This document shows, one piece after another, positions 5,548 through 27,568 of a stretch of 39,655 nucleotides of DNA (its first letter is position 1; each line of letters begins with the position of its first letter). The notes beneath the pieces were generated by a model. That model worked only from the letters and a program-made list of their open reading frames with translations, made no database searches and was not told where the DNA came from. The position numbers were made by a program, and so were the translations under genes. Location: the NCBI GenBank assembly GCA_964637815.1, contig CAZWYD010000001.1:1-39655 (forward strand), in the 5' to 3' direction. The DNA comes from an uncultured Planctomycetia bacterium (GTDB lineage: Bacteria > Omnitrophota > Gorgyraeia > Gorgyraeales > Gorgyraeaceae).

Positions 5548-5574
5548 TGGTTTTTAAACGAAAGGATTATTAAA

Positions 5575-6546: not shown

Positions 6547-6555
6547 AAGATTAAT

Positions 6556-8595: not shown

Positions 8596-9350
8596 AAATT
8601 GGAGCTATTGTTCAAGCACGTTTGAATTCAAAAAGATTACCAAGAAAGGTTTTATTGCATTTGGCAGGAAAGCCAGCATTATGGCATGTTTTAAATAGAT
8701 TGAAGCATTGTAAAAAATTGGATACGGTTATACTCGCTACATCTACTGATAAAGAAGATAGAAAACTAAAAGATGTTGCTGATTTATTAAATATAAATTC
8801 ATTTTTTGGGAGCATTAATGATGTTCTTTCAAGGTACTATTATGCTGCAAAGGAATATAATCTAGATGTGATAGTTCGCATAACAGGTGATTGTCCACTG
8901 ATTGATCCTTCAATTGTAGATGAAATTGTAGAAAATTATAAAAGAGATCAATATGATTACTATGGACTTTCTGGTGATTTTCCAGATGGCCTAGATGTAA
9001 GCGTCTTTAGTTTTAAAGCGCTAGAGATAGCTTTTAAAGAAGCTAAGCTTCCTTCTCAAAGAGAACATGTTGTCATGTTCTTTGAGAAGAACAACGATAG
9101 ATTCAAGCTTGGTTTTTATGAAAAATTTCAAGATAAAGGAGATTATCGCTGGACGTTAGACGAACCCGAAGACTACGAATTTTTAAAGGCTGTTTTTAAT
9201 GAACTTTATAATGAAGAAAAAGTTTTTAACTATGAGGGTATATTTGCATTATTGGAAAGGAAACCAGAATTAATGAAGATAAATAAGCATATTATAAGAA
9301 ACGAGGGATATCTGAAATCATTAGAAGAAGATAAAAGATCCGTAACTTAG
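8592..9350 (+). CDS. SpsF/PseF-like cytidylyltransferase (CMP-nonulosonate synthetase family)
   Basis: MKIGAIVQARLNSKRLPRKVL and ITGDCPLIDP are typical of SpsF-type cytidylyltransferases. The ATG at 8592 is preferred over the track's GTG at 8580 because of the ATGA coupling. Confidence 0.8.
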   Translation: MKIGAIVQARLNSKRLPRKVLLHLAGKPALWHVLNRLKHCKKLDTVILATSTDKEDRKLKDVADLLNINSFFGSINDVLSRYYYAAKEYNLDVIVRITGDCPLIDPSIVDEIVENYKRDQYDYYGLSGDFPDGLDVSVFSFKALEIAFKEAKLPSQREHVVMFFEKNNDRFKLGFYEKFQDKGDYRWTLDEPEDYEFLKAVFNELYNEEKVFNYEGIFALLERKPELMKINKHIIRNEGYLKSLEEDKRSVT

Positions 9351-9364
9351 CGAAAGAAGGATTT

Positions 9365-10675: not shown

Positions 10676-10676
10676 A

Positions 10677-11600: not shown

Positions 11601-11602
11601 TT

Positions 11603-12634
11603 ATGAAAATAGTATTTCGCTGTGATGCATCTTTTGATATTGGATTAGGTCATTTGGTAAGATCTTTGGCCTTAATAGAAGAACTTGTCTCGCGTAATCA
11701 TGTTATCCTAGCAACAATCGAAGATGGAGCAAAGCCATATATTAGCAAGAGGGTTAATGAATTTGATACATTTTTTAAAGAAAAAAATGAAGGAGAAGAG
11801 GAGTTTTTAAGGCGCATAAAGGTTATTTTGAAGCCTAACGTTGTTGTTATAGATAAAAAATATCCCTATAGCTCAGAATTTCTGAATCAGTTAAAAGGAG
11901 AGAATATCAAGATTATAATGATAGACAATATCTGTGAAGGACTTTGTGCTTCAGATGAGATCATATTTCCTACAGCGCATCTTGATAAGACCCTGTTAGA
12001 AAAATATTTATCACAGGAGAAGATTGATAGTGTGAAGACAGGGTTTGAATATATAATCTTACGCAAAGAGGTCTTGGCATTAAAAGATAAAACCCAGCCT
12101 GGTTTACATACATCGTCGAGAGTTGTCGTGACTACTGGTGGTACTGATCCTGAAGGCGTTTTACTCAAGTTGATTCCTTGGATAAAGGACATGGCTTTAG
12201 ATGCTAGAATCTTGTTATTACTTGGTCAGTCGTTCAGATTTAGAAATGAACTTAAGCACTTGGTAACTGATTTGCCAAACAATATTCACCTTATGTCATA
12301 TTCTTTAAAGGAGGTTATAAAAGGAGATATAGCAATCTGTACTTTTGGTGTGAGTGTATATGAAATGATTTACCTTGGCATACCAACTATATGTATCTCA
12401 CACAATATCGAAAATGCAGATGGTGCGAGGATGTTAAAGAAAAGATGCGGTGTTATAGAAAATCTTGGTTATGTCGAGGATATTAGTGTTCAGAGTTTAC
12501 ATTCAGCAGTCATAAAATTGTTATCTGACAGAATGCTTTGTCGCAATATTTTCGAGAAGTCCCGTAATTTAATAGATGGTAGAGGCATAAAGAGGATTAG
12601 TCAGATAATTACAAGGGCTAGATTATATGTCTAA
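11603..12634 (+). CDS. pseG: PseG/SpsG-like UDP-sugar hydrolase (GT-B, GT28 C-terminal-like)
   Basis: KIVFRCDASFDIGLGHLVRSLALIEEL is the typical PseG N-terminus, and VVVTTGGTDPEG lies at mid-protein. The ATG at 11603 is preferred over the TTG at 11597. Confidence 0.7.
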   Translation: MKIVFRCDASFDIGLGHLVRSLALIEELVSRNHVILATIEDGAKPYISKRVNEFDTFFKEKNEGEEEFLRRIKVILKPNVVVIDKKYPYSSEFLNQLKGENIKIIMIDNICEGLCASDEIIFPTAHLDKTLLEKYLSQEKIDSVKTGFEYIILRKEVLALKDKTQPGLHTSSRVVVTTGGTDPEGVLLKLIPWIKDMALDARILLLLGQSFRFRNELKHLVTDLPNNIHLMSYSLKEVIKGDIAICTFGVSVYEMIYLGIPTICISHNIENADGARMLKKRCGVIENLGYVEDISVQSLHSAVIKLLSDRMLCRNIFEKSRNLIDGRGIKRISQIITRARLYV

Positions 12635-13565
12635 AACTAAAGCTTTTGTCTATCCACCTACAGGCTTGGAACATTATGGTAGCTTAGTAGATTCTATAGA
12701 TGGCTTCGACGTAATTGAATGCGAGTGTTGTGGATTTAAGCATATTATTCCTATCCCGACGCCACAGAAATTAGATGATTTATACAAGGATAGATTTTAT
12801 TCAACCGAGAAGCCTAGATATTTTAAGGAAGCAGAAGAGGATATAGAATGGTGGGAGATGACATACCGCAATTATTACAAATTATTTGAAAGTCATCTTT
12901 CAAAAAACAGCAGGAGATTGCTTGAAGTTGGGTCAGGCCCTGGGTATTTTTTGAAATGCGGCAAAGAATTAGGATGGTCTGTGGTTGGATTTGAACCATC
13001 AAAACAGGCGTATGAGTATTCTCAGAGATTTGATGTAGAAGTTATAAACAAATTTTTTGACAAAAGAGTCACAACTGATCATGACAAGTTTGATGTTGTA
13101 TATATGAATATGGTTATTGAGCATCTGCCAGATCCATTGTCGTTGATCAAGGCTGTAAAAGAAGCATTAAGGCCTGATGGAATTATTTGCATTATTGCAC
13201 CCAATGATTATAATCCTTTGCAAAAGATTGCCAGGAATGATTTATGTTGCGAATCATGGTGGATAGCCCCACCGCAACATATAAATTATTTTGATTTTGA
13301 ATCAATTGCAAGATTTCTTGGAAAGGCTGATTTCGATATTGTAGAGTCTATGGCAACTTTTCCCATGGAGTTCTTTTTATTGAGTGGGGACAATTATTTG
13401 AGCAATAATGAAGTAGGTAGAGAATGTCATTCCAGACGCAAGATGTTCGAGGTAAATATGTATAAAAATGAAGCGGAATATTTGAACAAGGTCTATAGAG
13501 ATTTGGCTTCTAATGGTATAGGAAGAGAATTTCTGATTATCGGAAGGCTGCGTAATAATGGATAA
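12627..13565 (+). CDS. Class I SAM-dependent methyltransferase
   Basis: It carries SAM motif I (LLEVGSGPGYFL), the acidic loop VVGFEPS and post-motif VVYMNMVIEHLPDP...LRPDGIICIIAPN. A CxCC cluster sits near the N-terminus. It overlaps the upstream gene by 8 nt. Confidence 0.82.
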   Translation: MSKTKAFVYPPTGLEHYGSLVDSIDGFDVIECECCGFKHIIPIPTPQKLDDLYKDRFYSTEKPRYFKEAEEDIEWWEMTYRNYYKLFESHLSKNSRRLLEVGSGPGYFLKCGKELGWSVVGFEPSKQAYEYSQRFDVEVINKFFDKRVTTDHDKFDVVYMNMVIEHLPDPLSLIKAVKEALRPDGIICIIAPNDYNPLQKIARNDLCCESWWIAPPQHINYFDFESIARFLGKADFDIVESMATFPMEFFLLSGDNYLSNNEVGRECHSRRKMFEVNMYKNEAEYLNKVYRDLASNGIGREFLIIGRLRNNG

Positions 13566-13590: not shown

Positions 13591-15153
13591 ATGAAGAATA
13601 CAGTTGTTTTATTTAAGCCAAGGACATATCCTAAGGGTTCCCGCAACGATAGAATGACCCCTGTGCATTTACCGCTGGGTTTATTGACAGTAGCATCTCC
13701 TTTAGTCAGGGATGGTTATCGCGTTGTTGTATATGATGAAAATTTTGAGGAAGATATTAAAACTAAACTACAGGTCTTAAAAGACGATATTATCGCGATT
13801 GGAATAACAGCCCAGACAGGGTATGAGATTGTGGGTGGGGTAAGGATGTCAAAATATGCTAAAGAGACGTTAAAGGTTCCTACTATATGGGGAGGTTGGC
13901 ATCCTTCGACTGTACCACGCCAGACAGCAGAAAACATATACGTAGATTTCGTTGTGAAGGGCGCAGGGCAGCAGACTTTATTAGATTTGATAAAGGCTAT
14001 AAATAATGACCTGTCTTTTAAGGATATCGAAAGTATACTGTATAAAAAAAATGGTAATATCTTTGAGAATCGCACCAGGAGGTTAATGGATATAAACAAC
14101 TATCCTTTGCCTAGTTATGATCTTGTTGATGTGGAGAAATATATTCAAGACGGGTGCAATAAAGGTACGGGTATATCAAACGATGTCCATTTTAAAAAAG
14201 AAAGAATGCTTATGTATGTTACAAGCTATGGATGTGTACATAGATGCAGGTATTGCGCAGCTACCAGTGTATTTAATCGCCAGATAACACTTTTAAAGGC
14301 CGAAACAGTAGGAGAACAGTTAGAGTCTCTTGTAAAAAAATATAATATCCAAACCATATTTTTTATTGATTCCAATTTCTTTGCTAGCGCAGAAAGGGTT
14401 AAAAAGATATGCAATGAGATTTTAAAAAGAAGACTAAATATTAAATATGTAGCAGATCCACGCGTGGATCACATAATGAGATGGGATGGCAGTGTGCTTC
14501 CGCTGTTGAAAAAGAGTGGCTGTGTATGGTTAGGTGTTGGCTCAGAATCAGGCTCTCAGAATATTTTAGATTATATGCAGAAGGACATAAAGGCTTCTGA
14601 TATCATGAAGGCAGCAAGAAAGGTTCTTGCTGCAGGCATAGACGTGACTTTCTTTTTTATGTTTGCCATGCCAATGAACGAATCAAAAAAGGATCTTTTT
14701 GAGTCTTTAAAACTTGCAGCTCAATTGAAAGAGTTGTATCCAAAAATTTTACTCCCAATGTATTTTTATGACCCATTTCCAAGCACGCCTATGTACTATG
14801 ATGCAGTAAAAAGTGGATTTAGAGAGCCTAACTCTCTTGAAGAATGGGGACATCGCATACCTGATGTTATAGACAAAAACCCTTTAACTCCTTATGTAAG
14901 CGATAGATATGTGGATATGGTTAAAAGAGTTATAATCTTTTATCTGCCATTGACATATCCCGCAGATATGGTTTTGGGTACATTAACGCATATTAAAACA
15001 CAGATGAAAAAAGGAAGATATAAATATCTTCTTAGGTTTTTACATGTATTGGCCCGGATTAGAACAAGGCACCAATTTTATTATATCCCTGTTGAATGGA
15101 TGGTATTCAAATTTGTCCAGAAACTAATGCCACATAGGATATATAAGAAATAA
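13591..15153 (+). CDS. B12-binding-domain radical SAM protein (class B-like) no. 1
   Basis: The N-terminal Rossmann/B12-like region is VVLFKP...LPLGLLTVASPL...IGITAQTG...IWGGWHPS. The CxxxCxxC cluster CVHRCRYC is at nt 14233-14256. A GGAGCGAAGGA RBS lies upstream. Confidence 0.85.
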   Translation: MKNTVVLFKPRTYPKGSRNDRMTPVHLPLGLLTVASPLVRDGYRVVVYDENFEEDIKTKLQVLKDDIIAIGITAQTGYEIVGGVRMSKYAKETLKVPTIWGGWHPSTVPRQTAENIYVDFVVKGAGQQTLLDLIKAINNDLSFKDIESILYKKNGNIFENRTRRLMDINNYPLPSYDLVDVEKYIQDGCNKGTGISNDVHFKKERMLMYVTSYGCVHRCRYCAATSVFNRQITLLKAETVGEQLESLVKKYNIQTIFFIDSNFFASAERVKKICNEILKRRLNIKYVADPRVDHIMRWDGSVLPLLKKSGCVWLGVGSESGSQNILDYMQKDIKASDIMKAARKVLAAGIDVTFFFMFAMPMNESKKDLFESLKLAAQLKELYPKILLPMYFYDPFPSTPMYYDAVKSGFREPNSLEEWGHRIPDVIDKNPLTPYVSDRYVDMVKRVIIFYLPLTYPADMVLGTLTHIKTQMKKGRYKYLLRFLHVLARIRTRHQFYYIPVEWMVFKFVQKLMPHRIYKK

Positions 15154-15173
15154 TCCAAAGGAGGAAACAAGTA

Positions 15174-16382
15174 ATGGGTTATAGATGTGTTATGTGTGAT
15201 TGTAAGGATTGCAAGAAGATTACGAATGTTAAGCTTGTAAAGCTTAATTATTTGTCAACCAAAGATAGGATAGATACAGAAGAAAAGAGTCATATAATGT
15301 GTCCAGCTTGCGGATTTATATCAATATACCCAAGGTATACTAAAGAGGCGTTAAAGACTTATTATAAAGATATACCTACCTCTCAATTTGATGATGATGT
15401 CTTGAAAAATTATACACATCTTTTTTATAGAAAGACCATAGATCATCTTGACGGTATTGTGGGGTTAAAAGGAAAAACGGTTTTTGATGTGGGTGCGTCG
15501 CAAGGGCTATTGCTAAAGATGATAAAAGATAGCTTTGGTTGCGATGTCAATGGATTAGAGCCCAGTCAGAAGTGCGTGAAATTCGCAAAGAAGGAACTAG
15601 GGATTGAGCTAGTCAATAAAATGCTAGAGGATATCGATATTGAGAAGGGCGAATTTTTATATTTAAAGGAAGGTTTCGATGTTGTTTTAAGCTTACATGT
15701 TCTAGATCTTGTATCTGACCCAAAGGGATTTTTAGAGTCTTTAATTAAGTTGACAAAACCAGGAGGCTATATATATGTTGATGTGCCATCTTGGTTTGTC
15801 GAACGCTATCCTAATCCACGCTATGGAAATACCCTTTGTGCTATACACCATAATCATTTTAGCCCCACTTCTATAATAAAGTTTTTTGAAAAGGAGAATT
15901 GCATAACGCTTGCAGCTTATACTGAATTATCAGAAACTAATTACCCCACACAGCGATTTTTGCTTAGGAAGTTGAATTATATTGAAGGGATAGAGAGCGA
16001 ATTTGTGAAATATTTTGAGTCTAGACATAATAATAATTATGAAAGGGCATTCTCTAAAGTTTTAAACTATCTCGGGCAATTTAAAAGAATAGTATTTTAT
16101 GGTGGCGGAGAAGACTTGTTTCGTTTTATTGAGACCCATAGAGATTTTTTTGAGAAGAATAAGGGTAGATTTCAATGTGTTGACTATAATGAGAATAAGA
16201 TTGGGAAGAATCTGTTGATGTTGAAGATAGAGCCTGTGAAGGGATGTCTCTTGGCTCCTAAAGATACAGTTGTCTTGAGTACCTCTACAAGCCAGATGGT
16301 CCAACGCCATATAAAATCGGATTTTGATAAGCTGAACACAAATTTAAAATTCGATAATTTGTTTTCGGACGTAGCGTTTTAA
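15174..16382 (+). CDS. Zn-ribbon / class I SAM methyltransferase with C-terminal Rossmann-like (C-methyltransferase-C-like) module
   Basis: It has Cys clusters CVMCDCKDC...CPAC and SAM motif VFDVGASQGLLL, plus LTKPGGYIYVDVPS. The C-terminal module is RIVFYGGGEDLF...CVDYNENKIGKNL. A strong AAAGGAGG RBS lies upstream. Confidence 0.8.
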   Translation: MGYRCVMCDCKDCKKITNVKLVKLNYLSTKDRIDTEEKSHIMCPACGFISIYPRYTKEALKTYYKDIPTSQFDDDVLKNYTHLFYRKTIDHLDGIVGLKGKTVFDVGASQGLLLKMIKDSFGCDVNGLEPSQKCVKFAKKELGIELVNKMLEDIDIEKGEFLYLKEGFDVVLSLHVLDLVSDPKGFLESLIKLTKPGGYIYVDVPSWFVERYPNPRYGNTLCAIHHNHFSPTSIIKFFEKENCITLAAYTELSETNYPTQRFLLRKLNYIEGIESEFVKYFESRHNNNYERAFSKVLNYLGQFKRIVFYGGGEDLFRFIETHRDFFEKNKGRFQCVDYNENKIGKNLLMLKIEPVKGCLLAPKDTVVLSTSTSQMVQRHIKSDFDKLNTNLKFDNLFSDVAF

Positions 16383-16397
16383 TAAGGGTGACCTCAA

Positions 16398-17630
16398 ATG
16401 AGAAAAAATGTTTTGATTGTCGGCGCAGGAATAAATCAATTGCCTTTGATAAAATTAGCAAAACGTAAAGGGCTGTATTTTGCGGTAGCGGATTTAAATC
16501 CCGATGCAATAGGGGCAAAATATGCGGATCGTTTTTATAATATCAGTACTAGCGATATTCAGGGGATGGTGCAACTGGCAAAGAAATTGGATGAAGAGAT
16601 AGGACTTGATGGAGTCACAAGTATGGCAGCGGAAGTTTCAAAGACTATCTCTGAGGTGGCAGAAGAGCTGGGATTACCTGCTATTAGCAATGAAACTGCA
16701 GAGGTCACGACTAATAAGTTAAAAAGGTACGAGCGGTTACGCAAATGTGGCATCTCTATCCCGAGATTCTATCCTGTCAAGAACAGGAAAGAAATTATGT
16801 CAGCTATAAAAGATCTGGGCTTACCAGTTGTTATAAAGCCGGTTGATAGCGCTGGCGCAAGAGGCGTCCAGAAGATATTTGATGTGGCAATGATTGATGT
16901 AGCGTTGAGGGAGATTAAGAAATATTCAAAAGCAGACGTGTTTATTATAGAAGAATTTTTACAAGGGACTGAGCATAGTTCAGAATCGATAGTTATTGAT
17001 AACGAGATATACACTACCGGGTTCTCAGACCGTAACTATGACAAGAAAGAGATAAACCCGCCTTATTTTTTAGAAGACGGAGATAGCTTGCCGACAGCCT
17101 TGCCGGATAACGTATATGAAGATACTCTGCAATTGGTTAAGGAAGCCATAAAGGCGCTTGGTATAAATTTTGGCCCTGCGAAAGGCGATATCTTTATTGA
17201 TAAAAAAGGCCCTAAGGTTTTGGAGATGGCTTCAAGGTTAAGCGGAGATTATTTTTGCTGGGAGACAGTACCTTTGCATAATGGGACGGATATTTTAAAC
17301 GTTTTGCTTGATATAGCAGTGAGCAACAAACCAGATGTAAGTTTATTGAGTCCGAAATTCAATCGAGGCGTTGCGTTACGTTATTTTTTTCCAAAAAAAT
17401 CAGGGAGAATAAAGTCAATAAAAGGCGTAGATGAGGTGAAGCATATGGAAGGGGTTTATTTCTTTAAATGGGAGCCTGCATATGAAAACATCGATGTTGG
17501 AAAAGAAATCAGAATCCCTACATGCCATGCTGAAAGAGTGGGCTGTGTTATGACGCATGCTGATACAAGGGAAAAGGCTGTCAGGATAGCAGAAAAGGCA
17601 GTTAGTGCAATAACCATAGAGGTGGAGTAA
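16398..17630 (+). CDS. ATP-grasp carboxylate-amine ligase
   Basis: VLIVGAGINQLPLI, the grasp core LGLPVVIKPVDSAGARGV, FIIEEFLQGTEHS and KVLEMASRLSGD resemble PurK or L-amino-acid-ligase type ATP-grasp enzymes. Confidence 0.8.
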   Translation: MRKNVLIVGAGINQLPLIKLAKRKGLYFAVADLNPDAIGAKYADRFYNISTSDIQGMVQLAKKLDEEIGLDGVTSMAAEVSKTISEVAEELGLPAISNETAEVTTNKLKRYERLRKCGISIPRFYPVKNRKEIMSAIKDLGLPVVIKPVDSAGARGVQKIFDVAMIDVALREIKKYSKADVFIIEEFLQGTEHSSESIVIDNEIYTTGFSDRNYDKKEINPPYFLEDGDSLPTALPDNVYEDTLQLVKEAIKALGINFGPAKGDIFIDKKGPKVLEMASRLSGDYFCWETVPLHNGTDILNVLLDIAVSNKPDVSLLSPKFNRGVALRYFFPKKSGRIKSIKGVDEVKHMEGVYFFKWEPAYENIDVGKEIRIPTCHAERVGCVMTHADTREKAVRIAEKAVSAITIEVE

Positions 17631-17635
17631 ATAAT

Positions 17636-18592
17636 ATGCAAAGAATGATGAAGATATTGTATCTTGGGTCAGGACATGCTTCAATCCAGGCATTTTGCAA
17701 TCTGGCAGAAAAAAAATTCAATATAACTGGATTAGTTCTTTCAAAAGTTCCGAAAAATATACCTTCGAGGTCTTCTGGTAGTGACGCTATTAAAAAAGCA
17801 GCCATGCAGTATAATATAAAAGCATATTCTTATACTGAATTATTAAAGGCTGTAAAAGAAACTTCTCCTGAGTTGATAGTTGTAAATAATTTTATTGATA
17901 TAGTACCTCCGAAAATTATAGATAATTATAAATGTATCAATTTGCACTATGCCTTATTGCCTAAATATAGGGGGCTGCATGCTACGCAATGGGCATTGAT
18001 AAATTGCGAAAAGGAGGTGGGTTTTACCGTACATTTTATGACGAGAGGGTTTGATGATGGTGATATCCTGTATCAGGGCAGGATAAAGGTCTGTGATAAT
18101 GATACTATAAACACGCTATATTCTAAGCTTAATAAAGAATCAGCCATGGCATTGCCAAAGGTGGTTGAGCAGATTGAGAAAAATACCTATAAAGCGGTTT
18201 CGCAGAACGAACGCATGGCTACCTATGTGCAGAGAAGATATCCGTCGGACGGTCTGATAAACTGGAATTCAACGTCATTAGAGATATTTAATCTGATAAG
18301 GGCGCTGGCATATCCTTATCCAGGCGCTTATACTTTTTATAAAAATGAGAAATTGATAATATGGAAGGCATCGCTTTGCAAATCTCCTTTTTATAAAGAG
18401 ATACCGGGCCGTGTGGTTAAAATTACAGAAAAAGGTATTTTGGTAAAAACCAGAGATAATCTTCTTAATGTCGAGAAAGTGCAGTATGGTAAAAACAAGA
18501 CACGGGATGCTAGCGCGCTTTTTAGGAAACCAGGGGCAAGATTAGGCATAAGTATGAACGATTTAATACAGAAATATATGGGACCGGCTTAG
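17636..18592 (+). CDS. Formyltransferase (Fmt/ArnA-N/sugar N-formyltransferase family) with Fmt-like C-terminal domain
   Basis: CINLHYALLPKYRGLHATQWALIN provides the Asn/His motif and FDDGDIL the catalytic Asp context. The C-terminal YPGAYTFY...LIIWKA resembles the Fmt C-terminal domain. Confidence 0.85.
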   Translation: MQRMMKILYLGSGHASIQAFCNLAEKKFNITGLVLSKVPKNIPSRSSGSDAIKKAAMQYNIKAYSYTELLKAVKETSPELIVVNNFIDIVPPKIIDNYKCINLHYALLPKYRGLHATQWALINCEKEVGFTVHFMTRGFDDGDILYQGRIKVCDNDTINTLYSKLNKESAMALPKVVEQIEKNTYKAVSQNERMATYVQRRYPSDGLINWNSTSLEIFNLIRALAYPYPGAYTFYKNEKLIIWKASLCKSPFYKEIPGRVVKITEKGILVKTRDNLLNVEKVQYGKNKTRDASALFRKPGARLGISMNDLIQKYMGPA

Positions 18593-18594
18593 AT

Positions 18595-19968
18595 ATGTTT
18601 TATTATAAACTTACACCCGCGAGTTGCAAAAAGATTAAGACCAGATACAGAAAAATTGTAACAGGGCTTCCTGTAAAGGAATCTGTGCGTATCTTAAAAG
18701 AGATGCATAAGTTTGAACCTAGATCGGTATCTGGCCAGCCTCCAATTATCTGGGATTGCGCAGAAGGAGTAAATGTGTTTGATAAATATGGCAATATGTG
18801 GCTGGACTGGAGTTCTGGAGTTTTAGTGGCGAATTCCGGCCATAGCAGAGGCAGGATTAAGAAAAGTATCTCAGATCTGATTAATAAAAGCCTTATATTC
18901 TCCTATTATTTTCCGACAGAGGTTCGGATCGAACTGGCAAAAAGAATAATAGCTATTTCACCTAAGGGCTTGGACAAGGTATTTTTATTAACCACAGGCG
19001 CAGAGGCTACTGAAAATGCCTTAAAACTTGCCAAGACTTATGCGTTAAAAAAATACGGGAAAGAGAAAAAAATTATCTTAAGTTTCATTAATGCATTTCA
19101 TGGACGCACAATGGGTGCGCAGCTAATGGGAGGCAATCCAAAGGCCAAGGAGTGGATAGGCGAGTTGGATAAAACATTTATTCAGGTTCCATTTCCAGAT
19201 GGATTTAGGGATAAAAATACAGATTTCCACTTTTTCTTAAAGGAATTAAACAAAAATAACATAGCCCCTTCTCAAGTTGCGGGCGTAATTATGGAATCAT
19301 ATCAGGGAGGAGGAGCAAGTTTTGCACCGAAAGAATATGTAAGGAGGCTTTTAGAATGGTGCCATAAAAGCGATATTTTGTTTATAGCTGATGAAGTTCA
19401 GTCAGGTTTTGGTCGCACCGGTAGGCTGTTTGCTTTTGAACATTATGGCGTAGTTCCGGATATTGTATGCTGCGGAAAAGGAATTACAAGTTCTCTGCCC
19501 ATGTCCGCTGTTATAGGAAGGAAAGATATATTGGATTTATACGGGTCAGGCGAGATGTCGAGTACTCATGGCGGACATCCATTGTCCTGTGCTGCTGCGT
19601 TGGCTAATATTGAGATTTTATTTGAAGAGGATTTGATTGGGAATGCGTTAAAGTTGGGGAAAGTGTTAACAGCTTCTTTGGAAATATTGAAAAATAAATA
19701 TCCTGATATTATCGGAGCTGTGCATGGTAAAGGTCTTGTCAGTGGCCTGCACATTATTAGGTCAAGAAAAAATATGGAACCAGATACTGATAAGGCGCAT
19801 TCTATTGTAGAGAGATGTTTCAGGAGAGGTTTGCTTATATTTTCTCCTGTGGGATACGGTGCTGCTACCATAAAGATTGCACCGCCTTTGATTATAAATA
19901 AAGAAGCGCTTCTTGAAGGAGTTTCTGTGTTGGACGAGGCAATAAGCGGGGCAGGAAAAGAGATATAG
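18595..19968 (+). CDS. Class III (omega-type) PLP aminotransferase
   Basis: TTGAEATENALKLA, ADEVQSGFGRTG, the PLP-lysine context CCGKGITSSLPMSAVIG and STHGGHPL fit this class. Confidence 0.85.
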   Translation: MFYYKLTPASCKKIKTRYRKIVTGLPVKESVRILKEMHKFEPRSVSGQPPIIWDCAEGVNVFDKYGNMWLDWSSGVLVANSGHSRGRIKKSISDLINKSLIFSYYFPTEVRIELAKRIIAISPKGLDKVFLLTTGAEATENALKLAKTYALKKYGKEKKIILSFINAFHGRTMGAQLMGGNPKAKEWIGELDKTFIQVPFPDGFRDKNTDFHFFLKELNKNNIAPSQVAGVIMESYQGGGASFAPKEYVRRLLEWCHKSDILFIADEVQSGFGRTGRLFAFEHYGVVPDIVCCGKGITSSLPMSAVIGRKDILDLYGSGEMSSTHGGHPLSCAAALANIEILFEEDLIGNALKLGKVLTASLEILKNKYPDIIGAVHGKGLVSGLHIIRSRKNMEPDTDKAHSIVERCFRRGLLIFSPVGYGAATIKIAPPLIINKEALLEGVSVLDEAISGAGKEI

Positions 19969-19971
19969 GAC

Positions 19972-20736
19972 ATGACAAGGAATCCGCAGTTAAAGATTAG
20001 AGAAAGATATGATGGTGCAGGGATGTTGAAAGATATCCGATTCAGGCACGTCTTGCTCAAGAAAGACATGAACTTTAAATCCGATAGCTACGAGACAGCT
20101 ATAGTGATATTAAAGGGAAAGTGTCGTATTTATGTGCGTGGCATTGAATACCGCTTGAAACGTAAGGATGTGTTTACAGAGAAGCCAAGCGCAGTCTATG
20201 TCTCTGTTCAGGATGCAGTTAAAATAAAAAGGGACTCGGAATTTTGCGAAATAGCAATATGTCAAACTCTCTCTGCTGAAAAGAAAAAGACTTCTCTTAT
20301 ATTAAAGGAAAAAGTTAATAAAGAGGAGCGCGGTAAACTCCCTTATAAAAGATATGTTTTTGATATAATCAGTGAACAGTTTAATGCCGGCACCATGCTC
20401 ATTGGCGAGACAATTAATTTTTCTGGAAATTGGTCGAGCTATCCTCCACATAAACATGATGCAAACAGTCTTCCCTATGAAACAAAGATGGAGGAATTGT
20501 ATTTCTTTAAGCTTTGGCCAGATAACGGCTTTGGATTCCAACGGTTATATACAAAAGATAGGTCGATTGACAAGACATTATTGATAGAAAATAATGATAT
20601 CGTGTTGATCCCTAAAGGTTATCACCCTGTATGTGTAATGCCGGGTTATAAATTATATTATCTTTGGATTCTTGCAGGCAAAAATCGGATACTGAAACCC
20701 AACGAGGACAGTGCATATGCATGGACTAAGACATAA
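19972..20736 (+). CDS. IolB/KduI-like cupin (5-deoxy-glucuronate isomerase family)
   Basis: NWSSYPPHKHDANSLPYETKMEELYFF and the C-terminal IPKGYHPV match the IolB signature region by eye. It starts 3 nt after the aminotransferase stop. Confidence 0.72.
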   Translation: MTRNPQLKIRERYDGAGMLKDIRFRHVLLKKDMNFKSDSYETAIVILKGKCRIYVRGIEYRLKRKDVFTEKPSAVYVSVQDAVKIKRDSEFCEIAICQTLSAEKKKTSLILKEKVNKEERGKLPYKRYVFDIISEQFNAGTMLIGETINFSGNWSSYPPHKHDANSLPYETKMEELYFFKLWPDNGFGFQRLYTKDRSIDKTLLIENNDIVLIPKGYHPVCVMPGYKLYYLWILAGKNRILKPNEDSAYAWTKT

Positions 20737-20755
20737 ACAGGAAAGCACAGGCAAT

Positions 20756-22786
20756 ATGATGTATTTATATTCTGTTTTTCACTTGAACCTAATGTACTCT
20801 TCTATAAAGGAAGAGGATTGGCCAAAGGTTATAAAGATATGTTACTGGCCCATATTGGATATTATAAAATCCTTGGAAATTCCCCTGGGGATAGAAATTT
20901 CCGGACATTCGTTAGAAATGATTAAAAAGATTGATTCGAGATGGATAAGTTCATTCAAAAAATTATTGAAAGCCGGAAAAACTGAACTTATAGGAAGCGG
21001 TTATATGCAGATAATAGGACCCTTGATCCCGAGAGAAATTAATGCATATAACCATAAATTTGGATTGGATAGTTATAGAAAAATACTGGATTGTGTTCCG
21101 GAGATTGCATTAGTTAATGAGCAGGCTTATTCCTGCGGTTTAATAGATGGCTATAAAAAGGCAGGATACAAGGCTGTTATAATGGAGTGGGATAATCCTT
21201 TTCGTTTTCATCCGGAATGGGATAGCAGATGGAGGTATTATCCCCAGATGGCTAGCGATGATTGCGGAAACTGTATCCCTGTAATTTGGAACAACGCAAT
21301 CTTGTTTCAGAAATTTCAAAGATATGCACATGGGGAGATTGAGCTTGAAGAATATATGTCTTACCTAAAAAGCCATTTTCTTGGAGAAGAAACAGTACTT
21401 TCATTATACGGGAATGATGCTGAGACTTTTGATTTCAGGCCGGGTCGTTTTCACACAGAATCAGATATCCATAAAGGCGGAGAATGGAATAGAATCAAGG
21501 TATTACTTAAGGGATTAAAAAAAGATTCCAAATTTAGTTTTATTTTGCCATCCGGGGCATTGAAGTTTACAAGGCAGCCTTTGGCAAATAACAGGATTCA
21601 TTTAGAGTCATGCGCTCAACCTATACCGGTTAAAAAACAGGAAAAGTATAATATTGCAAGATGGGCGGTGACTGGCAGGAACGATACTATAATCAATACC
21701 AAATGCTACCGTCTCTATGATTATTTAAAGGATTGCAATAAGAGCGGAAAAAATAAAGCAGAAACAGAAGGCTTATGGAGGAAATTGTGTTATTTATGGA
21801 GCAGTGATTTCAGGACTCATATAGAAAAAGCCCGCTGGAGAGTGTTTAATAAAGATTTAAATTATACGCTAAAAAAAGCAAAAAAGATTTACGAAAGCAC
21901 GATTACGAAAAATGAAAAGTTCAAACCAAACAATCAAATAATTCCAAGTTCGATACCTGAAGTTAGGCGCATAAAAACAAAAATAGAGATAGAAAATAAA
22001 AAAAATGAACTGATTTTAAATTGCAATAAAGGCCTTACAATAACTTCTTTGATATTTAAGGACATAAGTCCATGTCCTTTAATAGGGACGATTTCTCATG
22101 GTTATTATGATGATATAAGTCTAGGGGCGGATTATTTTACAGGTCATACGATTATAGAGGGAGCTGATTTAAAAAAGTTTACTGATTTAGCAAGTGTAGT
22201 ACCAGACATATTGGATGGTTTTAGCAGTCAAAAGCCGTATATTCAGGTAAGAGGCACTATTAAATTGGGCTGTGGGACAATAAAGAAGGAGATAAATTTT
22301 TATTTATTAGAATCCAAGATAGACATACGCTATATTTTTAATCTTAATTTCGGAGTCCCTGTTTCTTTAAGGACAGGCATCGTCACATTGTTACCTGAAG
22401 CCTTTGATAAAAATACGCTGTATTACAAGACTGTAAATGGCGGTACGCATAAAGAAACCTTTAGAATTGGCGGGACTGCCTCAATCAATTTCGGTGCTCC
22501 GGTTAGCAGGATGGTTACGGCCAGCCATTGTTTAGGAGCTACGGACGGTTGGTTAGAGATGGGTGACAAAGATAAGAATATCAGAATTTATTCGGATAAG
22601 GCTAAGATGTATAGCGTGCCAATGTTAGAATATAAGACTGTTTCAAATTCATATTTTTTAAGATGCCTTAATTCTTTAAGAGAAATAGATGAAACCTCAA
22701 TAGAGGGAAAAGGTTTTAAGGGCGAAATAAAATTTTCTATTATAGCAAGTAAGAATAAACAAAAAGAGAAACGGTGTAGCACCTAA
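20756..22786 (+). CDS. GH57-like glycoside hydrolase-fold protein with large uncharacterised C-terminal half
   Basis: N-terminal FHLNLMYSS, GKTELIGSGYMQIIGPLIP, ALVNEQAYS (candidate nucleophile Glu, nt 21119-21121) and YGNDAETFDF (candidate acid/base Asp, nt 21416-21418) resemble conserved GH57 regions. The ATG at 20756 follows the iolB-like stop, and I prefer it to the track's overlapping GTG at 20711. Confidence 0.6.
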   Translation: MMYLYSVFHLNLMYSSIKEEDWPKVIKICYWPILDIIKSLEIPLGIEISGHSLEMIKKIDSRWISSFKKLLKAGKTELIGSGYMQIIGPLIPREINAYNHKFGLDSYRKILDCVPEIALVNEQAYSCGLIDGYKKAGYKAVIMEWDNPFRFHPEWDSRWRYYPQMASDDCGNCIPVIWNNAILFQKFQRYAHGEIELEEYMSYLKSHFLGEETVLSLYGNDAETFDFRPGRFHTESDIHKGGEWNRIKVLLKGLKKDSKFSFILPSGALKFTRQPLANNRIHLESCAQPIPVKKQEKYNIARWAVTGRNDTIINTKCYRLYDYLKDCNKSGKNKAETEGLWRKLCYLWSSDFRTHIEKARWRVFNKDLNYTLKKAKKIYESTITKNEKFKPNNQIIPSSIPEVRRIKTKIEIENKKNELILNCNKGLTITSLIFKDISPCPLIGTISHGYYDDISLGADYFTGHTIIEGADLKKFTDLASVVPDILDGFSSQKPYIQVRGTIKLGCGTIKKEINFYLLESKIDIRYIFNLNFGVPVSLRTGIVTLLPEAFDKNTLYYKTVNGGTHKETFRIGGTASINFGAPVSRMVTASHCLGATDGWLEMGDKDKNIRIYSDKAKMYSVPMLEYKTVSNSYFLRCLNSLREIDETSIEGKGFKGEIKFSIIASKNKQKEKRCST

Positions 22787-23593: not shown

Positions 23594-24580
23594 ATGAGAA
23601 ACAGCAGGCAGAATCTAGTAGAGTTATGGCGTACAGGACCTTTTAATTTACCATTAAAGGATAAAAGGCGTTTTACTCTGAAATATATATTTCCTAGTGG
23701 CAGGCAGGCTATAGCTTGTTCATTAAAGCATGCGGGCTTAAGTCGTTCCAGGAGGATGGCTTTCCCAGAATGGAGTTCGCATTGTGTTATAAGCGCATTG
23801 GGAAGGCATGTTACTCCTGTGCCCCTAAATGAAGTTCTCAAATATGGCATTGAGATAGACGCTGTGTTATTGTATGAACAATGGGGTTGGCCTTTTACAA
23901 ACTCTGCATGGGAGGCTCTGGAAGAAAGATTTAAGAATAAAATAATAATATTGGATATGGTTGATTCAGCCGATTTTTATTTTAACAGGAGAGAATGCCC
24001 AAACTGTAAAACTTTAATAGAGATTTTGAGTCTGAACAAGATATTGGGCTTGCGTGGTGGTGGTTTAGCATATTTTAATAGAAGACCTTTGGTATTCGCG
24101 CCTACCTTAAAATCACAATTGACAAAGATGCTTGACGATCAAAGGAAAAACAGTATCTTTAAAAAGGATTTTGGATACAGGGACTATTTTCAAAATAGCG
24201 ATCAAGCAGTAAATCCTGCAATCGTAAACTGGGTAAAACAAAATGACCTTTTGGGCGCAATTGAAGCAGAAAGGGAAATTAGACAGAACAACCTTCATTT
24301 TTTATTAAGGAGCCGCTTTTCTTCCTGTTGGCCTAAATGGATGGTAGATGTTGTAGAAAATGGCGCGGGCCCAGGAATAGCACCAATTATGAAAGGGGCA
24401 GGGGAGAAAAGGTTAAGGACGCTAGCGTCTGTTTTGGAAAAAGAACATAAAATGAGAGCTGTTATTTACCACTTTAACTGGTCAGGAAATCCGCTGAAAC
24501 CGTCTTATGAAAAGTGTCTTGCTGTTCCTGTACATGGTATGGTTAAGGATTTATACAGTATTTTAAAGAACATAAGGTAA
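23594..24580 (+). CDS. Hypothetical protein, divergent DegT/PLP-dependent-transferase-like fold
   Basis: Segments line up by eye with DegT landmarks: SGRQAIACSLKHAGL (cf. SGTAAL), IIILDMVDSA (cf. vIEDaAqA) and LSLNKILGLRGGGLA (cf. FSFHxxKxxxxGEGG). Overall similarity is weak. The coding call is good but the function call is tentative. Confidence 0.4.
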   Translation: MRNSRQNLVELWRTGPFNLPLKDKRRFTLKYIFPSGRQAIACSLKHAGLSRSRRMAFPEWSSHCVISALGRHVTPVPLNEVLKYGIEIDAVLLYEQWGWPFTNSAWEALEERFKNKIIILDMVDSADFYFNRRECPNCKTLIEILSLNKILGLRGGGLAYFNRRPLVFAPTLKSQLTKMLDDQRKNSIFKKDFGYRDYFQNSDQAVNPAIVNWVKQNDLLGAIEAEREIRQNNLHFLLRSRFSSCWPKWMVDVVENGAGPGIAPIMKGAGEKRLRTLASVLEKEHKMRAVIYHFNWSGNPLKPSYEKCLAVPVHGMVKDLYSILKNIR

Positions 24581-24585
24581 TTAGT

Positions 24586-25704
24586 ATGAAATTTGCGGAG
24601 TTCAATGATTTTACGCCTCAAGAATGGGATGACTGCATAAAAGCGGTTCCTGAGTCTACGTATCTGCATAGTTCATGGTGGTTAAGGTATTTGAACGCGA
24701 TGCATTCTGACGTAGTCAATAAAAGCTTTATTTTATTTGAAGGAGCGTTGCCTATAGCAATTTGCCCTATCGCTGTGCATAAGACAAGCAATTTGGGGAT
24801 GGAATACATGGAGGCGACGTTTGGCGGTTTTTCAAGCATTTATCCTGCAATAATTAAACTGCCTCCGACTCAAAGAAGGCGGGTTGTCCGTAAAGTTTTT
24901 GCTCTGATGGACGAAAGAATGGAGATGTGTGAAGTTAAAAACTCCAGGCTTTTCAGACATCCTATAAACTTAGATGTTATGAACGGAGGGCTCAGTATTA
25001 CTAATATGACCGAGGGTATTTCACATGGTTATATCCCTTATGTGAAGAATTCCGTGATAATAGATCTCAGAAAAGAAGAAGATTGCCTGATGCATGAGAT
25101 GAGCCAGTACCAGCGGAAAAATATAAGAAAGTCAGAAAAACAAAAGTTGTCTGTAAAGGAATACAGGGGCGAAGCCAAAGATACAGATGAAATTTTCGAT
25201 GATTTTAAATCTGCACATTTCAATAGTTCTGGCCGGCTTACCAGGCCTATGGAGACGTGGGACATGATGAAGGATTTGTTAAAGAAGAATATGGCCGTGC
25301 TATTTGCTGTCTCTACAGAGGAAGGAAAGAATATTAGTTATTTATATTGCGGAGAATTTCACAAATTCTGTTTTGGATGGTCGCAGGTTAACCTTAAGGA
25401 ATGCGAAGGTTTCCATTCTCCTCGCCATCTTTTAGAATGGGAAGCCATGTTGTTTTATAAAGCAAGGGGGTTTTATTTTTATGAAATCGGTCCCAAGAAT
25501 GATTCGTCTCAGCCGAATCATATTCCTACATATAAGGAATCGACTATCTCTCAGATAAAGGAGAGATACGGCGGAGATTTATATTGCTGGCTTTATTTTG
25601 AAAAATTTTTTGATAAAAGATTATTCGAGACAGTATATAATGATAGATTGAAAAATTTTTTAGCCTCCAATTATTTTTTACGCAAGGATACAAATGAAAC
25701 ATAG
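24586..25704 (+). CDS. FemAB-family / double-GNAT (aminoacyl-tRNA-dependent peptidyltransferase-like) protein
   Basis: Size (372 aa), an N-terminus of the FemX type (W..C......TYLHSSWWLRY) and the central EMSQYQRKNIRKSEKQKLSVKEY motif fit FemAB-like transferases. Confidence 0.65.
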   Translation: MKFAEFNDFTPQEWDDCIKAVPESTYLHSSWWLRYLNAMHSDVVNKSFILFEGALPIAICPIAVHKTSNLGMEYMEATFGGFSSIYPAIIKLPPTQRRRVVRKVFALMDERMEMCEVKNSRLFRHPINLDVMNGGLSITNMTEGISHGYIPYVKNSVIIDLRKEEDCLMHEMSQYQRKNIRKSEKQKLSVKEYRGEAKDTDEIFDDFKSAHFNSSGRLTRPMETWDMMKDLLKKNMAVLFAVSTEEGKNISYLYCGEFHKFCFGWSQVNLKECEGFHSPRHLLEWEAMLFYKARGFYFYEIGPKNDSSQPNHIPTYKESTISQIKERYGGDLYCWLYFEKFFDKRLFETVYNDRLKNFLASNYFLRKDTNET

Positions 25705-27568
25705 AAGAACAGTTATATTTTTGGATTATTTTGAAAGCCTGGAAAGAGTTGCACCTCTTGTGCATCGAATATGTTCGAGGTTTAAGGAAAAGCCTGTCGT
25801 GGTATCTTCTAATTTTGATCACAGCCCATTAAATAAATATTCAAATTTTGAGTTAGTTTATTTTGAAGAGTTTTTATCAAAGGAAGATTTTGTGTTTATG
25901 GAACAGTTTGTTTTTGATTTGACTCATCGCTGGTATGCAGGCTTAAGAAATAACGAAAGATTGGGCAAGACAAGGCAATATCTGGACATTGAATTTGGCT
26001 TCTTGGCAGAACATAAGATACAGCCGTTTTTTGCCTTCATGGTAAAAAAACTTGAGATCGCCTTGAAAATAATAGAATATTATAAGCCTACCCACATGAT
26101 TTTGATAGGCGAGCCGTGCATATTTAAAGAACTTTCTGAGTTGATAAAAGAAGACATTGGTATTTCTAGCGCATTTGTCAATTGCAAGGAAGAAAGGTTT
26201 TCCATAAAAAGGGCGTTTAAAAAGCTGCGCTATTTTGCATCAGAAATAGCATCGGATACTTTTGATTTTTTCATGCGTTTTATTGTAACTAGGAGAAAAC
26301 TTACAGGATGCGAGGTTTTTATAGACAATCGCCTTTATTTTAAATCCAAGGATTTAGCGAAACAATTTCAGACCTTTGTGTATGTTATAGGAAAAAGCTT
26401 GCAGATAAGATTGAAGCTCATCAAGGAAAAGAAAGTTTTTGCCCCTATCCTGGTAGATGATATGGTGAAGATACCTGATATTTTCAGCAGTTTTTATTGG
26501 AATTGGAGGTTAATAGAGAGAGATAAAAAATTCCAAGATAATTTCAGGTATAGGAATGTGCTGATATGGAAGATTATGAAAAGAGCCATAAAGGAGCTGA
26601 TTATTATTGATTTTCCGAAAATAAGAAAAAATATCATTTTTTTACAAAAATTATACAACGTTATTACGCCAAAGATGGTTGTTTTAAGAGAGGCTGTGCG
26701 GACTCCGGAAAAGACAATAGTATATACAGCCAGGGAAAAAAGTGTTTTGACCCTTGTTGCGCAACATGGTATCTTAGCTGCCTCCGGAGTATATACGGCT
26801 ATTCATTCAAACAAGATAGCTTTATGGGGCAGGGTTGGCATTGAATGGTATAGAGGCCATAATAATGATGTATCAAAATGTGTAGTTACAGGCAATCCGG
26901 ATCACGATTTTTGGTATTTTGAAAAAAATGGCGAAAAGGACAAGGTAAAAAGCATGCTTGCAAAGATCGGAATAAACCAAGGCAGGGATATCATTGCATA
27001 TCTTCCAGGATATTTTAAACTTAATAGGCGATTAGATCTTTCAGTATATCACTCTCAGGATTCAGAATTTATATCGCTGGAATCTGTCCTGAATGTTGCA
27101 AGATATTTTCCCGACAAATGTTTAATAATCAAAATTCATCCTTATGATACTATTGACATAAATTTTTTGCGTAATTACAGGGTAAAATATTATCCGAACG
27201 TTTTCATTGTAAAGAATGAAATTGATACAATAAACCTGATCCGCGAAAGCTCCTTGGTAGTTACTTCTCTTTTCTCATCTGCCGGCATAGATGCCGTTAT
27301 ACTGAAAAAACCTCTCATTACGCTGAATCTCTATAATAAGGAAGACTTTGCCCCTTTCGCACGACGCGATGTAGCTGTGAGTGTTAATAAAACAGAAGCA
27401 TTACTCGAAGCAGTGAATCAAATTTTTATTGACGGGAAGATAAAAGAAATAATGAGTATAAACAGAGATGCTTTTATATATGATTATGTTTATAAGATAG
27501 ACGGTAACTCAACAAAAAGGCTTTGGGAATTAATCAAAGGCTCAATATATGAGCAGATAGAAAAATGA
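25694..27568 (+). CDS. Large uncharacterised protein with GT-B-like C-terminal half carrying an HP motif (KpsS/TagF/sialyltransferase-like); candidate nonulosonate or phospho-sugar transferase
   Basis: The C-terminal half has VVTGNPDHD, IIKIHPYD (HP at nt 27137-27142) and SSLVVTSLFSSAGIDAVILKKPLI. I recognise nothing in the N-terminal 330 aa. It overlaps both neighbours (11 nt upstream, ATGA downstream). Confidence 0.4.
   Translation: MKHRRTVIFLDYFESLERVAPLVHRICSRFKEKPVVVSSNFDHSPLNKYSNFELVYFEEFLSKEDFVFMEQFVFDLTHRWYAGLRNNERLGKTRQYLDIEFGFLAEHKIQPFFAFMVKKLEIALKIIEYYKPTHMILIGEPCIFKELSELIKEDIGISSAFVNCKEERFSIKRAFKKLRYFASEIASDTFDFFMRFIVTRRKLTGCEVFIDNRLYFKSKDLAKQFQTFVYVIGKSLQIRLKLIKEKKVFAPILVDDMVKIPDIFSSFYWNWRLIERDKKFQDNFRYRNVLIWKIMKRAIKELIIIDFPKIRKNIIFLQKLYNVITPKMVVLREAVRTPEKTIVYTAREKSVLTLVAQHGILAASGVYTAIHSNKIALWGRVGIEWYRGHNNDVSKCVVTGNPDHDFWYFEKNGEKDKVKSMLAKIGINQGRDIIAYLPGYFKLNRRLDLSVYHSQDSEFISLESVLNVARYFPDKCLIIKIHPYDTIDINFLRNYRVKYYPNVFIVKNEIDTINLIRESSLVVTSLFSSAGIDAVILKKPLITLNLYNKEDFAPFARRDVAVSVNKTEALLEAVNQIFIDGKIKEIMSINRDAFIYDYVYKIDGNSTKRLWELIKGSIYEQIEK

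Follow-up and report, generated by a model that had tools for sequence, protein, structure and literature searches.

A conserved ATP-grasp/GH57-like gene pair with swappable, putatively acid-making cassettes in nonulosonic acid loci

Results

The subject of this study is a block of five genes at positions 16398-22786, on the + strand, of a 39,655-nt stretch of DNA from an uncultured bacterium placed in the Omnitrophota (CAZWYD010000001.1, positions 1 to 39,655); the whole stretch is referred to as the window throughout. The block encodes an ATP-grasp amide ligase, a formyltransferase, an aminotransferase, an IolB-type isomerase and a protein related to glycoside hydrolase family 57 (GH57-like), and it is part of a widespread, undescribed gene system of bacteria and archaea found in loci for nonulosonic acids (NulOs), sugars that resemble sialic acid. 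Comparative genomics shows that the ATP-grasp and GH57-like genes are the conserved frame of this system.

In gene order, the block comprises a LAL (L-amino-acid ligase)-type ATP-grasp amide ligase of 410 amino acids (aa) at 16398-17630 (Pfam LAL_C2, PF18603, 63.6 bits, together with ATP-grasp_3 and ATP-grasp_4), an ArnA/Fmt-type N-formyltransferase of 318 aa at 17636-18592 (Formyl_trans_N 111 bits, Formyl_trans_C 83 bits), a class-III, GabT/ArgD-like aminotransferase (AT-III) of 457 aa at 18595-19968 (Aminotran_3, PF00202, 300 bits over the full length), an IolB/KduI-family cupin aldose-ketose isomerase of 254 aa at 19972-20736 (PF04962 249 bits, TIGR04378 231.1 bits) and the GH57-like protein of 676 aa at 20756-22786, where PF03065 matches residues 32-283 only, at 49.2 bits against a cut-off of 21.2. 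These Pfam and NCBIfam scores bear out the five family assignments of the original prediction, an earlier reading of the sequence alone, and the open reading frame (ORF) coordinates confirm its account of five co-directional genes with gaps of 5, 2, 3 and 19 nt, given an ATG at 20756 as the start of the last gene. That start is backed by a GGAAAG Shine-Dalgarno-like motif about 10 nt 5' of it and by homologues aligning from residues 1-4; an alternative start lies at 20711, and public gene calls of 664 aa would lose the conserved first strand.

The ATP-grasp protein combines the ATP-grasp fold with LAL C-terminal domain 2, as L-amino-acid-ligase-type enzymes do, its substrate being predicted only; among solved proteins it comes nearest to 4DIM and to the L-amino-acid ligases BL00235, RizA and BacD. 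The best solved relative of the formyltransferase is ArnA, sugar N-formyltransferases being close as well, and the Asn-His-Asp triad that is catalytic in ArnA (Asn102, His104, Asp140) aligns with identical residues (N-L-H at 102-104, Asp140), as expected of an N10-formyl-THF-dependent enzyme of the ArnA/Fmt type. The aminotransferase carries DEVQ at 266 and CGKG at 293, with the lysine for pyridoxal phosphate in G-K-G 294-296, and is most similar among solved proteins to 4-aminobutyrate (GABA) aminotransferases. Its relatives at 50-55% identity occur both in AT-III/IolB/GH57-like trios and in housekeeping amino-acid contexts, and because its homologues in a metagenome scan lay mostly in the latter (AT-III, M20 peptidase, GFO, TrmD), the aminotransferase alone is no marker of the cassettes described below. 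The isomerase exceeds the equivalog cut-off of 205 bits set for 5-deoxy-glucuronate isomerase in TIGR04378 and, compared with the IolB-like structure 2QJV, keeps the cupin motifs HKHD (160-163), the Glu of EELYF and GYHP (216-219). It does not belong to a myo-inositol (iol) gene set: Pfam and NCBIfam recognised no IolC, IolD, IolE, IolG, IolJ or uronate catabolic gene in the 39-kb window, and its nearest homologues are found in NulO clusters, where on long contigs the order is ATP-grasp, IolB, mannitol dehydrogenase, GH57-like.

The claim that the GH57-like protein retains the GH57 nucleophile and acid/base stands. In both pairwise and profile searches, Glu122 (nt 21119-21121) and Asp221 (nt 21416-21418) align with Glu123 (nucleophile, conserved sequence region 3, CSR-3) and Asp214 (acid/base, CSR-4) of the 4-alpha-glucanotransferase of Thermococcus litoralis (TLGT, 1K1W), Glu77 with the CSR-2 Glu of GQLEIV and Glu223 with the CSR-4 Glu of HDDGEKFG. 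In 33 homologues of many phyla, 43-58% identical to the window protein, E122, D221, E77, E223 and D351 are all invariant and H9 is at least 90% conserved; H9 (CSR-1) and D351 (CSR-5), both outside the HMMER-aligned segment, are equated with the TLGT residues by motif resemblance only. Judged from these alignments, the isomerase and the GH57-like protein alike appear to have kept their metal-binding or catalytic residues, the loss of which would have spoken against the original prediction.

An AlphaFold (AF2) model built from the homologue alignment (pLDDT 87.8, pTM 0.89) had TLGT (1k1x) as its top Foldseek match in the PDB, at E 1e-24, and matched GH38 alpha-mannosidases over the full length with TMq up to 0.68. 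The C-terminal half of roughly 400 aa, which had been taken for an unknown domain, corresponds in this model to the helices and beta-sandwich of the TLGT/GH38 fold, so that the architecture is a normal one for GH57/GH38; many of its positions are invariant in the same 33 homologues. The two proteins are similar in length (659 aa in TLGT, 676 aa here) and share a (beta/alpha)7 barrel, a helical region and a C-terminal beta-sandwich, with nucleophile Glu, acid/base Asp and CSR-2 Glu aligning. They differ in sequence, being only some 11% identical in the structural alignment, in the Arg and Lys residues that are invariant near the catalytic motifs of the GH57-like protein, and in context, which is glycogen/maltodextrin metabolism for TLGT and NulO biosynthesis here. 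No characterised relative nearer than TLGT was found: a sequence search of solved structures, with the single sequence and with the family profile, returned TLGT only. Since the modelled barrel strand 1 begins at residue 2, the protein is probably cytoplasmic and devoid of a signal peptide. The aligned TLGT segment lacks three invariant basic residues, R228 and R231 just after the acid/base motif and R353 within the CSR-5-like motif, and also a flexible, invariant loop, PIPVKKQEKYN; K293, K294 and K297 are invariant too. Because these Arg residues and the KKQEKY loop are missing from that segment, an anionic substrate seems likely, and together with the genomic context the basic residues argue against a neutral alpha-glucan.

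The family so defined is sharply delimited, with 479 representatives at 50% identity (E<=1e-30) and more than 3,000 clusters at 90%, and the homologues listed all carry PF03065. It occurs in at least 391 species of the genome collection, among them Omnitrophota, Patescibacteria, Acidobacteriota, Thermodesulfobacteriota, Chloroflexota, Cyanobacteriota and Bacillota as well as Methanothrix, Methanocalculus, Thermoplasmata and Aenigmatarchaeota. Long members of 740-786 aa (P0077, P0091 and about eight others) were considered as fusions and rejected, the extra length being an insertion of about 100 aa between domains; P0245, joined to an AAC(3)-type amino-sugar N-acyltransferase, is the only true fusion among the long proteins. 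Our literature search for GH57 in connection with nonulosonic or pseudaminic acid, flagellin glycosylation or O-antigen returned no relevant paper, and two surveys of flagellin-glycosylation islands do not mention such a gene.

To describe the surroundings of the family, 80 genome loci were annotated with the window proteins and further loci were added by gene-position look-ups; proximity of ATP-grasp genes was counted in the 62 loci whose upstream flank was 4 kb or longer and upstream modules in the 59 where it was 9 kb or longer. In 53/62 loci the 4 kb preceding the GH57-like gene contain a LAL-type ATP-grasp gene on the same strand; in 33 the two are direct neighbours, usually overlapping or a few nt apart, and they are translationally coupled in most loci. 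The context was that of NulO synthesis in 80/80 loci, flagellin-glycosylation and O-antigen loci included, so that a GH57-like gene in a glycan-assembly operon, earlier held to be an anomaly, is in fact the rule for the family. Further upstream, genes for NeuB, a cytidylyltransferase, a GSA-aminomutase-like aminotransferase, an aldo-keto reductase, a PseG-like protein and a methyltransferase are each present in 17-36 of the 59 loci. Flagellin genes follow the block directly in 8 loci and are within range in 13; otherwise it is followed by Wzx flippases or Maf-type transferases. From these downstream genes we conclude that the system serves flagellin glycosylation and polysaccharides alike.

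What varies by lineage is the content of a cassette site, which lies either between the two frame genes or directly 5' of the ATP-grasp gene. Of 119 ORFs upstream that had stayed unidentified, 41 were short-chain dehydrogenases/reductases (SDRs), 18 transketolase-like and 10-13 ALS-like; these make up cassettes of a transketolase-like enzyme (split or fused) plus SDR, or of an ALS-like thiamine-diphosphate (ThDP) enzyme plus SDR. Other cassettes hold PanB with a ThDP enzyme and an SDR (L012), a GFO-family oxidoreductase (L017, L021, L069), a formyltransferase alone, placed between ATP-grasp and GH57-like (L043, L058, L061, L081), KduI with two SDRs (L008), IolB/KduI with an SDR in bacteria of the candidate phyla radiation (CPR), and IolB with a mannitol-dehydrogenase-family reductase (Desulfurella amilsii, L107, L109). 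The version with AT-III and IolB is that of the window, of the archaeon Methanocalculus taiwanensis (L088), of an actinobacterial (Actinomycetota) metagenome-assembled genome (MAG; L072) and of a metagenome contig (L095). The five-gene synteny expected by the original prediction was thus recovered in part: the order ATP-grasp, AT-III, IolB, GH57-like recurs in these three loci, with the formyltransferase displaced in Methanocalculus. In Methanocalculus all five families are present in one co-directional cluster, ordered formyltransferase, cytidylyltransferase, methyltransferase, three ATP-grasp genes, aminotransferase, IolB and GH57-like, with the formyltransferase about 6 kb upstream of AT-III/IolB, beside the cytidylyltransferase. 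With this distance, and with the gene standing alone in four other loci, the formyltransferase is not an obligate companion of AT-III and IolB, to which it had been tied.

The two frame genes relate differently to the cassettes. Identity of the ATP-grasp protein to that of the window is 47% in loci with AT-III and IolB versus about 25-38% in most others, whereas the GH57-like protein is about 40-50% identical in all but one locus, whatever the cassette, and in two of the AT-III and IolB loci is near its lowest value (42.5%), so that it does not track the cassette. This pattern fits an ATP-grasp ligase that reads the cassette product and a GH57-like enzyme that reads an invariant substrate. Two loci (L111, L112) lack ATP-grasp and have, beside PseB and PseC, an AMP-forming ligase, KduI, an SDR and a fusion of the GH57-like protein with an AAC(3)-type N-acyltransferase instead; activation of an acid and N-acyl transfer to an amino sugar by these proteins would correspond to what ATP-grasp would do in one step. 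In all cassettes, IolB/KduI is accompanied by a carbonyl-processing partner, be it an SDR, a UxuB-type reductase or an aminotransferase. A parsimonious account is that IolB makes a ketone or aldehyde which would be reduced in the sister loci and transaminated in the window, there yielding an amino-deoxy-hexonic acid. As an observation in its own right, the GH57-like cluster of Methanocalculus is bordered on its 3' side (14380-17098 of that locus) by genes for an integrase of the rve family and a DUF4277 transposase-like protein, which is consistent with horizontal mobility of the cassette.

On Pfam and NCBIfam annotation, the whole window is one tightly packed, predicted polysaccharide locus of the pseudaminic-acid type. 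Its 36 genes are all co-directional, with intergenic gaps of 5 nt in the median and 59 nt at most, the largest lying directly 3' of the GH57-like gene. Because equally tight spacing runs through the whole window, the five genes are not a discrete unit, as their close packing had been thought to indicate; the boundaries of the block are arbitrary, and it is an accessory part of the NulO locus. From its start, the window encodes a Wza-like SLBB exporter, RmlC-like, RmlD-like, PseB-like and PseC-like proteins, a short NeuB and CTP_transf_3, followed by a GSA-aminomutase-like aminotransferase, an aldo-keto reductase, a PseG-like protein, methyltransferases and three B12-radical-SAM (S-adenosylmethionine) enzymes; its other products include a FemAB-like protein, a 'PLP_IMCC1989'-like protein, a 624-aa TagF/KpsS-like protein, GT1 and GT2 glycosyltransferases, a Wzx flippase and a WbpB/WbpD/WbpE-like set.

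The NulO core module spans 5575-12634 (+ strand; Pfam, NCBIfam) and runs from the PseB-like to the PseG-like gene, PseB and PseC being recognised at Pfam level. A canonical PseB/C/H/G/I/F set was not found at equivalog level: the PseG model scored 115.8 bits (cut-off 153.55) and the PseI model 176.7 (cut-off 340.25), the NeuB has no SAF domain, no PseH-type GNAT was recognised among the window proteins by Pfam or NCBIfam, and the GSA-aminomutase-like and aldo-keto-reductase genes are extra. Given the missing PseH-type GNAT and the scores below cut-off, we regard the window as encoding a variant route to a pseudaminic (Pse)-type NulO. The five genes at 7735-12634 (NeuB without SAF, CTP_transf_3, GSA-aminomutase-like aminotransferase, aldo-keto reductase, PseG-like) overlap or closely abut, and this module recurs across phyla; the same gene types are given for lipopolysaccharide clusters of Legionella pneumophila serogroups 6/12 (PMC3694923).

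Discussion

We propose, with a probability of roughly one half, that the five genes encode the tailoring end of a pseudaminic-type NulO surface-glycan locus in which the acid made by the cassette is amide-linked by the ATP-grasp ligase. The IolB-type cupin would isomerise a free (deoxy)hexuronate from the aldehydo to the keto form, and the GabT/ArgD-like aminotransferase would turn that carbonyl into an amine, where the SDR or UxuB-type reductase of sister loci would make an alcohol; the product would be an amino-deoxy-hexonic acid. With the carboxylate activated as acyl phosphate, ATP-grasp would then join this acid by an amide bond to a free amine of the NulO or a precursor. Since no PseH-type acetyltransferase is recognisable in the locus, the acceptor could be the 4-amino group. 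Finally, the formyltransferase would cap the remaining amine, either that of the side chain or the other NulO amine; because it is separable from AT-III/IolB, it may formylate either of the two. The original prediction had envisaged a self-contained route to an amide-linked sugar acid, of which the locally made acid and the ATP-grasp amide fit the comparative data but the self-containment does not, the block being an accessory of NulO synthesis.

The GH57-like protein would most likely act on an anionic sugar that every version of the pathway has in common, cleaving an alpha-type bond in it, either glycosidic or glycosyl-phosphate. One candidate reaction would detach the N-acylated hexose from its nucleotide in the manner of PseG, as suggested by the position of the gene after the N-acylating enzyme and by the existence of the N-acyltransferase fusion. 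The other candidate reaction would set free the uronic acid on which the cassette draws, and this would account for the IolB/KduI cassettes of CPR bacteria, which are metabolically minimal. Tentatively, and with the odds against so far-reaching a view, the family may be a new functional class of the GH57/GH38 fold, namely a cytoplasmic hydrolase of anionic nucleotide-linked or NulO-pathway sugars and the obligatory partner of ATP-grasp in a modular acyl-installing system spanning bacteria, CPR and archaea; the product of the window would then be an unreported N-(formamido- or amino-deoxyhexonoyl) pseudaminic-type acid.

Several points weigh against the tailoring proposal. The substrates of the GH57-like family and of the ATP-grasp clade are deduced from genomic context, and the role of the cassette acid as carboxylate donor is putative. 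A PseG-like gene co-occurs in 36/59 loci, and we have for this reason rejected the GH57-like protein as a general replacement for PseG. Genes of the UDP-glucose-dehydrogenase family lie near only 8/80 loci (plus L107), which leaves a UDP-uronate source weakly supported. The ThDP enzyme and SDR of other cassettes could add a two-carbon branch to a keto sugar, as YerE/YerF do. One IolB homologue occurs in a NulO cluster devoid of GH57-like and ATP-grasp genes (L110) and another beside Leloir genes (L108), and the aminotransferase is equally close to housekeeping ArgD-like enzymes and to its cassette counterparts.

Among the alternatives, the one that survives best is that the five genes act independently on ordinary nucleotide-sugar or NulO intermediates. 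No sugar-acid side chain would then be formed: ATP-grasp would add an amino acid of the Ala, Gly or Glu type, the formyltransferase would make an N-formyl NulO or amino sugar, and AT-III and IolB would serve another sugar of the repeat unit. The separability of the formyltransferase (about 6 kb off in L088; alone in L043, L058, L061 and L081) is what this alternative would lead one to expect, ArnA and the sugar N-formyltransferases, its closest solved kin, use nucleotide-linked amino sugars, amino acids are the usual partners of LAL-family ligases, and FemAB-like and other tailoring enzymes are also encoded in the window. We nevertheless consider independent action improbable, as it does not account for the contiguous AT-III/IolB/GH57-like trio in four unrelated lineages, for the consistent company of IolB/KduI with a carbonyl-processing enzyme and ATP-grasp, for the co-variation of ATP-grasp sequence with the cassette or for the retention of KduI and an SDR even in the variant with AMP-ligase and N-acyltransferase.

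Far less probable still is a reading of the GH57-like protein as an ordinary enzyme of alpha-glucans (an amylase, glucanotransferase or branching enzyme) or as a polymer trimmer like BcsZ or PslG, present here only incidentally. The Pfam GH57 match, the seemingly complete catalytic set and the TLGT/GH38 fold are all compatible with it, and exopolysaccharide biosynthetic operons often include a hydrolase. Set against this are the NulO context of every sampled locus, including flagellin-glycosylation islands that make no polymer, the predicted lack of a signal peptide in the modelled protein, the translational coupling to ATP-grasp in most loci, the fusion of one member to an amino-sugar N-acyltransferase, and the invariant R228, R231, R353 and KKQEKY loop without equivalent in the aligned TLGT segment. 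It is hardly credible that IolB and the aminotransferase belong to, or are left over from, the catabolism of myo-inositol or hexuronates, since an equivalog-level IolB score is outweighed by the absence of IolC/D/E/G/J and uronate catabolic genes from the window, by the position of the gene inside a co-directional glycan operon and by nearest homologues that lie in NulO clusters (Desulfurella, L107, L109, L110).

The proposed amide-linked acid has close precedents in the N-acyl-tailored pseudaminic and legionaminic acids, which share with the window the NulO pathway (PseB-like, PseC-like, NeuB, cytidylyltransferase) joined by extra enzymes and methyltransferases, the amides of hydroxy or deoxy-hexonic acids on NulO, and the decoration of both flagellins and polysaccharides. 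Campylobacter jejuni makes a pseudaminic acid bearing di-O-methylglyceroyl (PMC3068675), and Treponema denticola, according to PMC13439194 (citing Kurniyati 2017), a 2-methoxy-4,5,6-trihydroxyhexanoyl-Pse; the latter acyl group is what a cassette like that of L008, with KduI, two SDRs and a methyltransferase, could produce. The window differs from these precedents in predicting an amino or formamido sugar acid, previously unreported.

Other known systems resemble parts of the proposed pathway. A KduI/IolB cupin beside a keto-reducing enzyme of the mannitol-dehydrogenase family or an SDR is familiar from UxaC-UxuB/UxaB, KduI-KduD and IolB, with the shared logic of an aldehydo uronate turned into a keto acid and then an aldonic acid; unlike these catabolic pairs, the cassettes would serve biosynthesis in conjunction with an amide ligase, neither a kinase nor an aldolase comes after them, and in the window an aminotransferase takes the place of the reductase. 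The order ATP-grasp then GH57-like resembles the PseH and PseG steps, in which a UDP-4-amino sugar is N-acylated and the nucleotide then hydrolysed off, and the GH57-like/N-acyltransferase fusion beside PseB and PseC mimics the same order. PseH, however, is a GNAT using acetyl-CoA and PseG has a GT-B fold, so that neither is ATP-grasp- or GH57-like, and a PseG-like gene coexists with the GH57-like gene in most loci. Work of the Raushel laboratory reportedly places an ATP-grasp enzyme, Cj1438, and an aminotransferase, Cj1437, in the glucuronamide pathway of the C. jejuni HS:2 capsule. As there, an ATP-grasp amide ligase and an aminotransferase dependent on pyridoxal phosphate would here generate an amide-linked decoration from within a surface-glycan locus; in the Campylobacter pathway, by contrast, the sugar (glucuronate) is said to give the carboxylate and serinol or ethanolamine phosphate the amine, with no IolB, formyltransferase or GH57-like partner.

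Why this matters follows from what NulOs do: on flagella, S-layers, capsules and O-antigens, they shape motility and the recognition of cells by phages and the immune system. The chemistry of their varied N-acyl groups (glyceroyl, hydroxybutyryl, trihydroxy-methoxy-hexanoyl and others) is known, whereas most of the installing enzymes are not. N-acyl tailoring of NulOs is known already, and the GH57-like family at the centre of the system is uncharacterised. A two-gene frame of ATP-grasp and GH57-like, with plug-in acid cassettes, which reaches at least 391 species as far apart as Omnitrophota, Patescibacteria and methanogens, could, if our proposal holds, offer a genomic rule for predicting NulO decorations and the first role outside alpha-glucans for an enzyme of the GH57 fold. 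Cultivable carriers of the system are Methanocalculus taiwanensis, Desulfurella amilsii, Desulfonatronum sp. SC1 and Desulfuromonas sp. CSMB_57.

Other features of the locus

Between the core module and the block, on the + strand, Pfam places a SAM methyltransferase (12627-13565), a B12-radical SAM enzyme (13591-15153) and, directly 5' of the ATP-grasp gene, a further methyltransferase (15174-16382). The first of these has strong orthologues in 33/59 loci, which makes it better conserved than most core NulO genes, and scores about 390 bits against an orthologue in a Saccharibacteria MAG. A methyltransferase of 370-403 aa likewise precedes the ATP-grasp gene in L007, L009, L106 and L109. The window has three genes for B12-binding radical-SAM enzymes in one glycan locus (13591-15153, 27565-28902 and 30010-31449); their products are probably C- or unusual methyltransferases, and homologues lie near the GH57-like gene elsewhere too, for example in L007, L009 and L022. 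The mechanical ORF at 28700-30013 overlaps the preceding radical-SAM gene by about 200 nt; its start is probably near 28886, since public calls on an identical contig give a 375-aa product.

Downstream of the block, the 624-aa protein (25694-27568, + strand) shows weak TagF/KpsS-like similarity (Glyphos_transf 30 bits, Capsule_synth 23 bits) and is a possible candidate for the transferase of the modified NulO. After the GH57-like gene, L008 and L009 encode proteins of 613-625 aa, and several other loci have unannotatable proteins of about 580 aa directly 3' of it. At 23594-25704, two neighbouring genes match hypothetical-equivalog models of NCBIfam, FemAB_IMCC1989 and, weakly, PLP_IMCC1989, which suggests further decoration of an aminoacyl type; a FemAB-like homologue is also present in the Saccharibacteria locus L080. 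Sulfated forms of the decoration are hinted at by another locus, L025, where a gene with a sulfotransferase domain (5115-5951) stands amid three ATP-grasp genes 5' of the GH57-like gene.

As regards composition, promoter-like and terminator-like sites in the window were in no excess over shuffled sequence and delimited no sub-operon. The G+C content is about 37%, and the coding strand has a strong, even purine excess, with a GC skew of about +0.2 across the whole window. Identical contigs are present in several metagenome assemblies.

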